From an uncultured Chloroflexia bacterium (GTDB taxonomy: Bacteria > Chloroflexota > Limnocylindria > Limnocylindrales > CSP1-4): DNA of 64,000 bases. Where the stretch lies: assembly GCA_963752475.1 (NCBI GenBank), contig CAVVYR010000007.1, forward strand, positions 320,001 to 384,000, in the 5' to 3' direction. The position numbers and the translations under genes are program-made. Each line of letters begins with the position of its first letter. Positions within the stretch are counted from its first letter, which is position 1. The notes beneath the pieces were generated by a model. It searched no databases. It had not been told where the DNA came from and saw only the letters and a list, made by a program, of their open reading frames with translations. Of this stretch, positions 44,944-55,837 are shown one piece after another.

Positions 44944-45177
44944 CCCGCGCTCGTAGCCAGTCGTCGCCCCCACCGACGCTCGCCCGCGGCCGTAGTCACT
45001 CGTCGCCCCCATCGACGCGAGCCCGCGCTCGTAGCCGCTCGTCGCCCCCACCGACGCGAGCCCGCGCTTGTAGCCGCTCGTCGCCCCCATCGACGCTAGC
45101 CCGCGCTTGTAGCCACTCGTCGCCCCCACCGACGCTAGCCCGTGCTTGTAGCCACTCGTCGCCCCCACCGACGCTAT
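44944..45177. repeat. Tandem array, 6 x 39 bp REP-like units
   Basis: cccgcgct(c/t)gtagcc(a/g)ctcgtcgccccca(c/t)cgacgc(g/t)ag starting at 44944, 44983, 45022, 45061, 45100 and 45139. Confidence 0.93.
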
Positions 45178-45443
45178 GGAGCCACTCGGCGGGTTTCGAT
45201 GGTCATGTGTCGCTCGAACCGACGCTAGCCCCACGAATCGGTCGAGCAGGGCGCCATCCGCGATGCTGGGCGCTCGCCGGTATGCCCCGCCACGCTCAGC
45301 GCAGGTGCCCCTGGTTCGACTCCGACGGGATCCGCTGACTACGAGTGTGACTTGCGTCGACTGGAGCGACGGATGTCCACATCGACAGGCGGGGTACCCA
45401 CCCCGGGGGTCACCGGGCCAGGGGAGTGGACTCCACCCAAGGC

Positions 45444-52878: not shown

Positions 52879-53052
52879 CTAGCGCTTGGCTTCCTTGGCG
52901 CGATTGCGCTGCTGGGCCGCGCGGTCGACGTCCTTGCTGCGCACGCGGGCCACGTCGCTGGCCAGCGTGGGGTTGATCATCATGTGGCCTTCGACGTCAT
53001 CGTCGTCGGCCGGGCGGTTCTGAGGGCTCTCCTTGCCCTTGTTCTCAGTCAT
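52879..53052 (-). CDS. 57-aa peptide with acidic DDDDVEGH leader and basic helical core
   Basis: GGAG RBS, own terminator, upstream TACAGT -10 and palindromic box; divergent from the Crp gene. Confidence 0.8.
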   Translation of the reverse strand: MTENKGKESPQNRPADDDDVEGHMMINPTLASDVARVRSKDVDRAAQQRNRAKEAKR

Positions 53053-53164
53053 GTTTGTCGCTCCATCTCTTGACCGGTTCGGCGACTTGGACGCTGTCGT
53101 CGAAGCGTGACTGTAGCGTGCCCGTCGAGGCCCGGCCACACCCTCGGACTCGCGACACTGCGCT

Positions 53165-53180
53165 TGTCAAATGGCCGACA
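53165..53180. promoter_or_regulatory. Crp/CooA-type binding site, box 1
   Basis: TGTCA-aatggc-CGACA (TGTCG-N6-TGACA on the minus strand) between the divergent peptide and Crp genes. Confidence 0.72.
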
Positions 53181-53240: not shown

Positions 53241-53932
53241 GTGGACCAGCAGTTGATCATCACCAGCCTGCGTGACTCGTACCTCTTCGAGCGTGCCGAC
53301 GATGACGCTCTCACGGCCATCGCGCGCCACATGCGGCGGCGCCGCTTCCGGCGCAACGAGACCATCATGCATCAGGGTGATCCCGGCGACGCCCTTCACG
53401 TCGTGAGCTCGGGCGCGGTCAAGATCGTGCTGCCCAGCCTCGAGGGTGAGGAGGCCATCATCGCCACCCTGCGCAGCGGTGACTTCTTCGGCGAGCTGGC
53501 GCTGCTCGACGGGGCTCCGCGCTCGGCCACGGCCGTGGCCTTGGAAACGACCGAGACGCTGACGCTCCCGCGTGAGGCCTTCCTCGAGATGCTCGATCGC
53601 GACAAGTCTCTGCGGGAGTCGTTGCTGTCCGGCCTCGCGCGAGAGATCCGGCGCGTCACCGGACACGTGGAGGAGCTCCACTTCCTCGACCTCGCCGGAC
53701 GGCTGGCCAGCCGCCTGGCGCGGCTGGCGCGTGAGGCCGAGCCCGAGGCCAACGAGGTCCGCCTCGACTGGCCCTATACGCAGTCGGACCTGGCCTCGAT
53801 GATCGGCGGTACCCGGCAGTCCGTTAACAAGCTGCTGTCCGACCTCGTCGACTCGCGACCTCGTGATCATCGAGAAGGACACGCTCATCATCCCCGACGT
53901 CGCAGGCACTGGAGCTCGAGGCCGAGCGGTGA
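53241..53932 (+). CDS. Crp/Fnr-family cNMP-binding transcription regulator, frameshifts near 53853 and 53905
   Basis: Phosphate-binding cassette FFGELALLDGAPRSAT; HTH TQSDLASMIGGTRQSVNK. TTGACG/CATGGT leaderless promoter. Repaired end ...IIEKDTLIIPDVAALELEAER* overlaps the next GTG. Confidence 0.92.
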
Positions 53933-54714
53933 CCGAGGCGACCGACGCCGCCCTGCAGGTCCTCCTCCGCGCCGCCCGCGAGACGGCCACCGCGCGGCGC
54001 ATCGGCGGTGACACCGAGACTGCGTTGCTGCAGTCGGTGGTGGATGCGGCCGCGACCATCTTCGATGCCGAAGCGTCGTCGATCGCGCTCTTCGAACCCG
54101 ATCCTGACCGGCTCGTCTTCCGCGTCGCGGGCGGCGAACAGGGCGACGGCGTCGTCGGCATCTCGGTCGCGCCGACGCACGGCATCGTGGGCTACGTCTT
54201 CTCGACCGGCGAGCCCATCGCGCTCACCGACGTCGGCTCGGACCCGCGCTTCGACAAGGGCACGGCAGAGAAGACCGGCTACATGCCGCGCAGCATCGCC
54301 GCCGTGCCGCTCATCGATGCCGGAGCCACGGTCGGCGTGTTGCAGGTGCTCGACAAGCACTCCGAGGAGTCGTTCTCACTGCGCGACATGGACCTGCTGG
54401 GTGTCTTCGCCCGGCAGGCAGCGGCAGCCATCGAAGCCGCGCGCGTGGGCCGTGACTCCGAGCGGCTGCTGCGCAACGCGCTGGTGGCCATCGGTGGTGA
54501 GGCGCTCGACACGGAGGCGCTGGATGCGCTCATGGCCGCTGCGGCCGAGGAGCTCGACCGTGACGACGAGGCACCGTTCTGGCGGCTGGTGGACCAGGTG
54601 GCGCAGCTGCGCGACACCAACGACGTCGATCTCGAGTTGGTGGAAGAGATCCTCGAGGTCGTGTCCCGGCATCGCTCGCACCGCCTCGGTCGCTACGGTC
54701 GCCGGCCCCGGTGA
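53929..54714 (+). CDS. Stand-alone GAF domain protein
   Basis: EASSIALF, GIVGYVFSTGEP, DPRFD, SIAAVPL and VGVLQVLDK...FSLRDMDLL (NKFDE-like GAF); helical C-terminal extension. Confidence 0.9.
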   Translation: MTEATDAALQVLLRAARETATARRIGGDTETALLQSVVDAAATIFDAEASSIALFEPDPDRLVFRVAGGEQGDGVVGISVAPTHGIVGYVFSTGEPIALTDVGSDPRFDKGTAEKTGYMPRSIAAVPLIDAGATVGVLQVLDKHSEESFSLRDMDLLGVFARQAAAAIEAARVGRDSERLLRNALVAIGGEALDTEALDALMAAAAEELDRDDEAPFWRLVDQVAQLRDTNDVDLELVEEILEVVSRHRSHRLGRYGRRPR

Positions 54715-55538
54715 GCGAGGCCTCGACGCTACGGCCGGCCTGGTCTGAGCCGTTCGTCGGCGAGGCCGTGGCCGAGCTGGCGCGAGCAGCGCGCCTCGAC
54801 CGCATCGACCGCGAGTGGGCGTTCGAGGGCGCGACCGGCAAGGGTGTGACGGTGGCCATCATCGACAGCGGCATCGAGGCCGATCACCCGGCGGTCTCGG
54901 GCCGCGTGCGCCGACAGGTGGCGGTCGAGCTGCAGGACGGCGACCCGGTCGTGGTCGATGACGAGTGCGGCGATCTCTTCGGCCACGGCACCGCCTGTGG
55001 CGGGCTCATCACGGACCTCGCGCCCGACGTCGAGCTGGTCTCGGTGCGTGTCCTCGGCTCCGACCTGCGGGGCAGGGGAGCGGCGTTCCTCGGGGGGCTC
55101 GAGTGGGCCATCGAGCATGAGGTGGATGTGGTCAACCTCTCGCTCTCCTCCAAGAGCGAGGTCCTCTTCGCCGACTTCCATGAGGTCGTCGACCGGGCCT
55201 ACTTCGCCGGAGTGACGCTCGTGAGCGCGGCCAACAACGCACCCGGTGCCTCGTACCCCTCGCTCTTCTCGTCGGTCGTCTCGGTCGCGGCTCACGAGGA
55301 GCCCGACCGCTGGCGCTGGTACTACAACCCGCGTCCGCCCGTGGAGTTCGGGGCCTGGGGCGTGAACGTGCCCATCGCCTGGAAGGACGGCGGCTCGTCG
55401 GTGGCCACGGGCAACTCCTTCGCGGCACCGCAGATCGCCGCGCTCGCGGCCCTGCTGCGCTCGAAGCACCCGGGCCTCACCCCCTTCGAGGTCAAGGCCG
55501 TCCTCGCCGCCACAGCAGACCTGTCAGCACCCGATTGA
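54711..55538 (+). CDS. S8 subtilisin-like serine peptidase, cytoplasmic
   Basis: Triad motifs IIDSGI, HGTACG and GNSFAAP; no signal peptide or obvious prodomain. Confidence 0.93.
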   Translation: MSEASTLRPAWSEPFVGEAVAELARAARLDRIDREWAFEGATGKGVTVAIIDSGIEADHPAVSGRVRRQVAVELQDGDPVVVDDECGDLFGHGTACGGLITDLAPDVELVSVRVLGSDLRGRGAAFLGGLEWAIEHEVDVVNLSLSSKSEVLFADFHEVVDRAYFAGVTLVSAANNAPGASYPSLFSSVVSVAAHEEPDRWRWYYNPRPPVEFGAWGVNVPIAWKDGGSSVATGNSFAAPQIAALAALLRSKHPGLTPFEVKAVLAATADLSAPD

Positions 55539-55547
55539 CCCAGCCGT

Positions 55548-55590
55548 TGTCGGCTGTCTGACAGTCCTCGCGGGCGTCTCCGCCTACCTT
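55548..55590 (+). promoter_or_regulatory. Class II Crp-type promoter, box 2 plus -10
   Basis: TGTCG-gctgtc-TGACA centred at 55555.5; TACCTT begins 29.5 nt downstream. Confidence 0.8.
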
Positions 55591-55617: not shown

Positions 55618-55827
55618 ATGGGCGACATGCTTCAGCACCCGGAGTTCTACACCCAGGAGATCGAGCGGCACCAGCTCGAGTCCCGACGATGGGCCGAGGC
55701 GGGCATGCTGGGCCGGCTTGCCAGCAGCGTCCGCGAGCAGTCGCAGGAGCAACCGCGGCGCTCCGGCTTCATCGCCCTGGCCACGCCGGTGGCGCTGGTG
55801 CTGGGCATGCTCGCGATCATCATCTAG
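55618..55827 (+). CDS. Small protein A: MLQH...RRWAE motif plus C-terminal TM helix
   Basis: GAGG RBS; paralogous to 60611..60850; dedicated promoter and terminator. Confidence 0.82.
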   Translation: MGDMLQHPEFYTQEIERHQLESRRWAEAGMLGRLASSVREQSQEQPRRSGFIALATPVALVLGMLAIII

Positions 55828-55837
55828 GCCCACTCCC

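Follow-up and report, generated by a model that had tools for sequence, protein, structure and literature searches.

The 57-aa open reading frame on the minus strand at 52879-53052 of the window (the whole 64-kb stretch of DNA analysed here) is a genuine and conserved small-protein gene, and its basic core and two other small proteins of the window, A and B, very probably share ancestry as members of one helix family, judging from profile comparisons of the predicted peptides. The core does not give rise to the same product as A and B; it belongs to an Asn-Pro type of helix, and A and B belong to a Trp22 type. What is new is a helix family that appears in led and leaderless forms within an apparently shared regulon.

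A conserved small gene with an acidic leader and a basic core

The features of the peptide gene and of the two proteins compared with it are:

52879..53052, minus strand: DVEGH leader-core gene (Asn-Pro type core), 57 aa, 72 homologues
52984..52998, minus strand: DVEGH motif, residues 19-23, putative S8 recognition site with the cut predicted after His; D19, V20, E21 and H23 invariant
52882..52983, minus strand: basic core, residues 24-57, net charge +5, single helix predicted at 28-56 (AlphaFold2)
55618..55827, plus strand: protein A, 69 aa, leaderless Trp22-type helix with a hydrophobic C-terminal segment
60611..60850, plus strand: protein B, 79 aa, leaderless Trp22-type helix with a His-rich tail

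The reading frame is as quoted in the initial annotation, and the gene lies head to head with a run of crp, GAF and S8 genes. It was the sole ORF of the DVEGH leader-core kind found in a genome-wide search, and is of the single-motif form with a terminal helix; the window holds no repeat gene. Among the 72 close homologues, one of which comes from Candidatus Limnocylindrales, 67 were aligned and D19, V20, E21 and H23 are invariant in all of them, the N-terminus of the leader being kept as well. The leader carries a net charge of -4 and the core one of +5; AlphaFold2 leaves residues 1-27 unstructured and folds residues 28-56 into one helix (pLDDT 86-94 over residues 31-57). The 57-mer holds no Cys. 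It had no match in Pfam, NCBIfam or PADLOC, and the Atlas clusters that matched it were unnamed Chloroflexota clusters only. No description of the DVEGH motif or of the gene set was found in the literature covered, outside which lie subscription journals and supplements.

The DVEGH tag is kept at the protein level and recurs in tandem

A profile search returned 135 representatives, and 124 of these more distant homologues contain D-[VTA]-E-G-H or something close to it. The motif is conserved, and one of the refuting results listed in the initial annotation, its lack of conservation in homologues, did not occur. Tandem motifs, in 2-6 copies, were present in 57 of the 135, and most of the printed examples end in the same helix, as do the likewise tandem DVEGH motifs of loci L055-L069. 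When the last motif was read in the 121 representatives with full context, D was conserved in 98%, E in 100%, G in 99% and H in 95%; the three residues preceding it are mostly acidic and the residue following the His is variable (S33, N24, M13, G8). Distant homologues keep only the tag and the helix, and the remaining leader is free in length and in sequence.

Three types of gene were recognized in the relatives: (i) repeat-only genes, mostly located between crp and GAF, (ii) genes joining the tag to an Asn-Pro type helix, which is the type of the window gene and sometimes follows up to 13 repeats, and (iii) genes joining the tag to a Trp22 type helix. Codons at the motif vary synonymously, which places the conservation at the protein level. 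An internal translation start at Met24 was considered as the reason for the motif and rejected as a general cause, because in 14 of 32 leader-helix genes the four residues after the His include no Met, and because of the same synonymous variation. Two database entries do begin at Met24 (P0076, P0077) and may be short gene calls. Four matches that looked like a core without a leader (L089, L097, L099, L146) proved to be frameshifted or to have missed leaders, and are not naked genes. Larger multi-motif tagged proteins with a hydrophobic C-terminal segment adjoin an Asn-Pro gene at L060:2062 and L146:346, and L146 carries three operators in tandem.

These patterns bear on the reading in which cutting destroys the peptide, the full-length form being active, the exposed N-terminus leading to degradation and A and B being stable for want of a tag. 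The variable residue after the His and the leader N-terminus kept in close homologues would fit it; against it, distant homologues retain nothing but tag and helix while the rest of the leader varies freely, and the leaderless A and B show that the helix alone is viable, so that we consider such a destructive cut quite improbable.

A GAF-coupled S8 subtilase as the predicted processing enzyme

Two overlapping genes form the predicted processing unit:

53929..54714, plus strand: GAF-domain protein; its start overlaps the expected crp stop and its stop overlaps the S8 start
54711..55538, plus strand: S8 subtilase without signal peptide or prodomain match; triad D52/H92/S236, oxyanion Asn176

The predicted fold of S8 matches subtilisin BPN', and its catalytic residues are retained throughout 80 loci (D52 80/80, H92 80/80, S236 79/80, N176 80/80), which derive for the most part from Limnocylindria or Chloroflexota. 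The GAF domain is most like those of cyclic-nucleotide enzymes and its gene lies beside S8 in 79 of the 80. When the surroundings of relatives' S8 genes were searched by tblastn (18 loci), 14 gave the peptide, in positions that vary, and 6 gave A; the 80 further S8 loci, drawn partly from the same genomes, gave GAF in 79, a tagged gene in 63, again at varying positions, and crp in 55, these being automatic counts over contigs many of which are short. Most S8 loci lack the helix (a strict count finds it in 19/80), and it is therefore not required beside every cassette.

At the level of genomes, S8 was found in 27/27 peptide-positive genomes (tested from 37 other matching genomes, leaving out two already known to have S8 and eight with E > 0.001) vs 2/20 peptide-negative ones (listed as non-matching, completeness at least 91%), and in 34 of 301 sampled Chloroflexota. 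Twenty more Chloroflexota loci, 18 of them from other families, separated by residue 146 of S8: a DVEGH-type gene lay nearby in 8/9 loci with Ser146 and in 0/11 with Gly146, the latter being stretches of 4.8-15 kb. Both the co-occurrence and the Ser146 split follow clades and are therefore not independent events. Within the stretches read, the sister GAF-S8 subfamily with Gly146 (L219-L224, L226-L229, L235) showed no DVEGH gene, and it may use another tag.

Reading the cut after the His places D-V-E-G-H at P5-P1: Val then occupies P4 and Gly P2, and both P3 and P5 are acidic. Residue 120 of S8 is basic in 79/80 loci and residue 122 in 80/80; these align with subtilisin 101 and 103, where, in PMC7935941, basic residues were tested to raise activity on substrates with P3 Ser/P5 Glu and S101K was chosen. 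The same source states that natural subtilisins favour a hydrophobic P1; His is thus atypical at this position and the cut may lie elsewhere. From the tandem repeats, the co-occurrence and the subsite residues, we infer that S8 would cleave after the His of DVEGH.

The atypical P1 His (PMC7935941) could also be taken to mean that DVEGH is a docking or inhibitory tag on S8 or GAF that is cut slowly or never, in which case the whole 57-mer would be a Crp-induced feedback regulator of the protease and the helix would add affinity. S8 lacks a prodomain match and is acidic (net charge -17), so a basic helix could bind it, and QhpE, the second NCBIfam match of S8 (below the cut-off), is a single-turnover enzyme according to PMC7876137. 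Arrays of up to 13 motifs and the free residue after the His look instead like repeated cutting sites, and A and B keep the helix with no tag, which makes docking unlikely. Near the N-terminus of S8 (window 54735-54755), an extension modelled with low confidence contains a near-invariant PAWSEPF stretch, which is possibly a built-in inhibitor or a GAF contact.

The three small genes are preceded by a shared operator

The regulatory features of the window are the following:

53165..53180: operator TGTCA-N6-CGACA, located by a pattern search in the spacer that separates the divergently oriented peptide gene and crp
53110..53115, minus strand: TACAGT, the likely -10 hexamer for the peptide gene; distance to the operator 49 nt
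53241..53932, plus strand: Crp/Fnr regulator with a cNMP-binding domain and RQSVNK in its recognition helix; frame lost near 53850 in this assembly
55548..55563: operator preceding A, with TACCTT (55585-55590) at a distance of 21 nt
60541..60556: operator preceding B, with TACGGT (60578-60583) at a distance of 21 nt

The 16-bp palindrome TGTCR-N6-YGACA has three copies in the window, one each before the peptide gene, A and B; shuffling the window gave 0.49 expected operators, and three were reached in 1 of 100 shuffles. The genome as a whole shows no enrichment of the operator (11 copies against 16 expected). Across the 80 loci it was found upstream of 14/16 Asn-Pro, 4/5 Trp22, 23/39 repeat and 5/8 other genes, with a chance level of 0.014, and it is missing before 16 of the 39 repeat genes. 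Spacings from operator to a -10-like hexamer peak at 21 and at 44-45 nt in these loci, and a similar hexamer stands at the same place before the relatives' peptide genes as before that of the window. Only three operators in the genome have a spacing of 21-22 nt, namely those of A, of B and of a second STAND-type cyclase; we take the 21-nt spacing to be the position of a class II activator. All three small genes belong in all probability to one regulon with this operator in common. A perfect operator was also observed at G000:C7:102576; a 64-aa ORF whose start resembles a signal peptide follows about 107 nt later, with a -10 that is outside the strict pattern.

The recognition helix of the cassette Crp begins with Arg-Gln in 49/49 matches. 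A distant family carries RESVNK instead (read in L230, L231 and L236) and has TGTGA-N6-TCATA before the repeat gene in 5/6 loci, so that the operator changes with the Crp helix, RQ going with TGTC sites and RE with TGTGA sites, a comparison of two clades only. The operator fits the CooA consensus as given in PMC545781, and in PMC2677863 a CRP with Gln181/Thr185 activated a CooA-type operator at low expression. CooA-type regulons thus have the operator consensus in common with the locus (PMC545781), and the window's Crp has Gln at the position of CRP Glu181; its cNMP-binding domain is most like that of CRP, however, and it is predicted to control a cyclase and the small peptide genes, where CooA controls genes for CO oxidation. 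On these sequence correspondences the adjacent cAMP-type Crp is likely to bind the shared operator. The cNMP domain of the regulator is fused to a Crp helix-turn-helix. A Pycsar or other anti-phage system was considered and rejected, as the PADLOC matches cover only the cNMP, cyclase and subtilase domains, with no cNMP-gated TIR or membrane effector.

Just past the recognition helix, near 53850 (53840-53910), crp of the window departs from its relatives' reading frame. Several relatives' loci are also frameshifted, and an assembly error in crp is therefore possible; the break would be either such an error or a broken gene. Two RNA runs covered a small share of the stretch, in contigs of depth 2-5 holding parts of S8, GAF, A and a relative's peptide gene, and contigs are no proof of transcription.

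The likely source of the cyclic nucleotide is encoded between A and B:

55929..59525, plus strand: zinc ribbon-class III cyclase-AAA-TPR (STAND-type) protein

A second zinc ribbon-cyclase-AAA-TPR gene, 56% identical to it, lies outside the window (G000:C7:387208-390840, L239); it has the same operator and a likely leaderless start, and its operator possibly closes a positive feedback loop. Between A and the cyclase of the window we observed a GC-rich inverted repeat (55837-55878), and a -10-like TACCAT stands directly before the cyclase start; together they suggest that the cyclase is transcribed separately.

Direct comparison of the core with A and B

The initial annotation had aligned the core with A and B, without gaps and by eye, and had called the likeness weak. 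The positions it listed as common (M1, N/H4, R/H15, D/E18, R21, A23, Q/E24, K/R30) are indeed present in all three, but the starts it quoted for A and B needed correction: the real ones lie three codons earlier, at 55618 (MGD-MLQH) and 60611 (MSG-MLQH), as indicated by the spacing of the ribosome-binding sites and by the starts of homologues. By hand count the core is identical to A at 5/32 positions and to B at 5/32.

When the profile of 38 cores was set against 17 A/B rows, it scored 24.6 bits in the quoted register and 9.4 in the next best. Of 2000 column shuffles that kept the first column fixed, each scored at the best of 9 registers, one attained 24.6 bits, as did 2 of 3000 shuffles preserving helix phase. 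With hhalign the same comparison gave 0.4% for a narrow alignment (A1) of close homologues, 4.9% and 11% for wider core sets, and 15% with a reversed control of 0.2%, the register being the quoted one in every comparison from 4.9% upward. Two of 39 candidate cores, the second of L034 and the post-S8 one of L036, had been dropped as not alignable. The likeness is hence above chance and in the proposed ungapped register, although the direct comparison remains weak (0.4-15%).

On the A/B matrix the core came 7th of 72,914 Met-started 34-mers in the genome, and on the core matrix B came 11th of the same 34-mers and A only 2144th. Of 1,071,868 windows taken from the genome's putative real proteins, 25 outscored the core on the A/B matrix, and the direct match alone is therefore no proof of kinship. 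An A/B HMM run on 76,100 six-frame genome segments did not have the core among the better matches listed. Searches with A found only A itself (single-sequence search), no relative (metagenome scan) and no usable match (Atlas); Pfam, NCBIfam and PADLOC had no match for A, and for B one sub-threshold match to SecM.

DVEGH-led intermediates link the core to A and B

The stronger evidence comes from tagged genes in the relatives. The slot directly after S8, which A occupies in the window, holds tagged genes in L098, L099, L101, L103, L106 and L115 (L102 has such a gene farther away), and both A and those genes are preceded by the shared operator, which lies 21-22 nt from a -10. The Glu18-x3-Trp22 mark of A and B is present in 6/8 DVEGH genes of the post-S8 slot. 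A set of led Trp22 peptides matched A/B at 83% (E 8.7e-6, 34 ungapped columns) and the Asn-Pro type core at 43% (E 2.4e-4), its six seeds having been chosen partly by an Arg-Glu-Trp pattern, which favours A/B. Since the first seeds were picked partly by the A/B mark, a second set was taken, consisting of seven tagged peptides found later in other genera; these matched A/B at 75% (reversed control 16%) and the Asn-Pro core at 82% (control 1%), in the same register. Profile comparison thus links the core to A and B, mainly via the DVEGH-led intermediates. Tag-less matches (L176-L179, L181, L182, L184, L185, L187-L190, L192, L194, L196-L198) were treated as chance; L186 has the tag, yet was missed by the pattern that defined the seven-peptide set.

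The likeness to A and B might alternatively be a chance one between Arg/Glu/Ala-rich helices, A and B having merely taken over the promoter. Low direct scores speak for this, as do the charged helices of unrelated proteins that score as high, but both sets of led intermediates match the core as well as A/B in a single ungapped register and have the slot and the promoter layout in common, and we hold chance to be most improbable.

A and B occur at strong E-values in 3 of 201 genomes of the family, all of one genus. In the S8 tree (midpoint root only), a single starred clade of ten contains all six A-bearing rows, and the tagged Trp22 genes are placed on two other lineages, a placement that makes one loss of the leader the simpler reading. 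That A and B are tag-less forms of the Trp22 paralogue is well supported by these sequence relationships. The Asn-Pro and Trp22 types coexist in L098 and L099, which points to different roles.

The initial annotation had taken the 57-mer for a protease-gated pro-form of the same ligand as A and B. Common ancestry stood up; the identity of product did not, given that the types are different paralogues, that A has its hydrophobic segment (highest 19-residue hydropathy 2.67) and B its His-rich tail, and that A and B are confined to one subclade. The idea that the released core, A and B all act as the same exported peptide signal on a common receptor would draw on their ancestry and their common operator; it sits badly with the differing tails of A and B and the mere 5/32 residues in common, with the derivation of A and B from a paralogue that coexists with the Asn-Pro type (L098, L099), and with the neighbours examined, none of which is a transporter, and we rate it as very unlikely.

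B and its homologues end in the His-rich tail with a conserved segment rich in Arg, Met and His (window 60700-60850), which possibly binds metal. A tag-less, short helix-like segment scoring 15.7 bits on the A/B model was observed near 1600 on the minus strand of L082, a stretch with neither operator nor S8, and the terminal core of P0202 resembles it; the helix family may extend far beyond the cassette.

A model for the cassette and its relation to known systems

Tag, core and operator are demonstrably conserved, and so is the order of the genes. Taken as a whole, the reading in which a cut by S8 after the DVEGH His frees a basic helix, with all three genes under the predicted Crp operator, stands at roughly even chances. 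The STAND-type cyclases would make cAMP and so activate Crp, and activated Crp would induce the small genes and the second cyclase. The GAF-coupled S8 would then read D-V-E-G-H at P5-P1 and remove the leader, whose acidic charge (-4) may mask the basic helix (+5) until that point. Conceivably the helix, once released, acts on an intracellular protein that belongs to this circuit (the GAF-S8 pair, Crp or the TPR part of a cyclase), a target that we name with low confidence. A and B would be ungated paralogues, and A might be a protease-independent, probably membrane-tethered version.

A more far-reaching proposal, which we put forward as speculative and doubtful, is an intracellular "convertase" circuit of cAMP-induced 34-residue helical effectors, some gated (DVEGH-led) and some ungated (A membrane-tethered, B His-tailed), in which a nucleotide-sensing GAF-subtilase would time the release and the effectors would feed back on the STAND-type cyclases of the same regulon.

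Known leader-removing systems resemble the cassette in part. As described in PMC4663559, PatA/PatE of the cyanobactins combine a cytoplasmic S8 protease with a short recognition sequence before each core and with multi-core precursors. However, S8 scored 20.1 bits on the PatA/PatG model TIGR03895, far below its cut-off of 421; cyanobactin cores are flanked by N- and C-terminal recognition sequences, whereas here one type of motif occurs and the core runs to the stop codon; and the terminal core is a conserved 34-residue helix, unlike the hypervariable cyanobactin cores of 6-20 residues. The neighbours scanned include no heterocyclase, macrocyclase or prenyltransferase of the kind found in cyanobactin clusters, and a GAF partner and Crp control set the cassette apart from PatA/PatE. 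QhpE/QhpC is similar in that a small cytoplasmic subtilase, co-regulated with its substrate, removes a 28-residue leader (PMC7876137), and S8 reached 107 bits on the QhpE model NF049966 against a cut-off of 165. That system has a radical SAM enzyme, QhpA/B and a Cys-rich QhpC, in contrast to the locus described here, which lacks these among the neighbours scanned and whose 57-mer is devoid of Cys/Trp cofactor residues.

The analysis gives the DVEGH cassette a candidate product in the conserved helix, a defined operator and, in A and B, a natural "pre-cut" control. If the model is true, it would be a leader-core system without modifying enzymes, doubly gated by cyclic nucleotide, in an uncultured class, and tag removal could be one use of a subtilase with specificity for an acidic motif whose last residue is His.

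Other neighbours

By domain scan, the neighbours comprise Crp, GAF, S8, the cyclase and an M19 dipeptidase, and three more are presumably purB, purH and metG, as named from their sequences. On the minus strand at 45176-45400 of the window an ORF was observed with tandem GLASxGATSGY[KE]R units, unrelated to the peptide gene.
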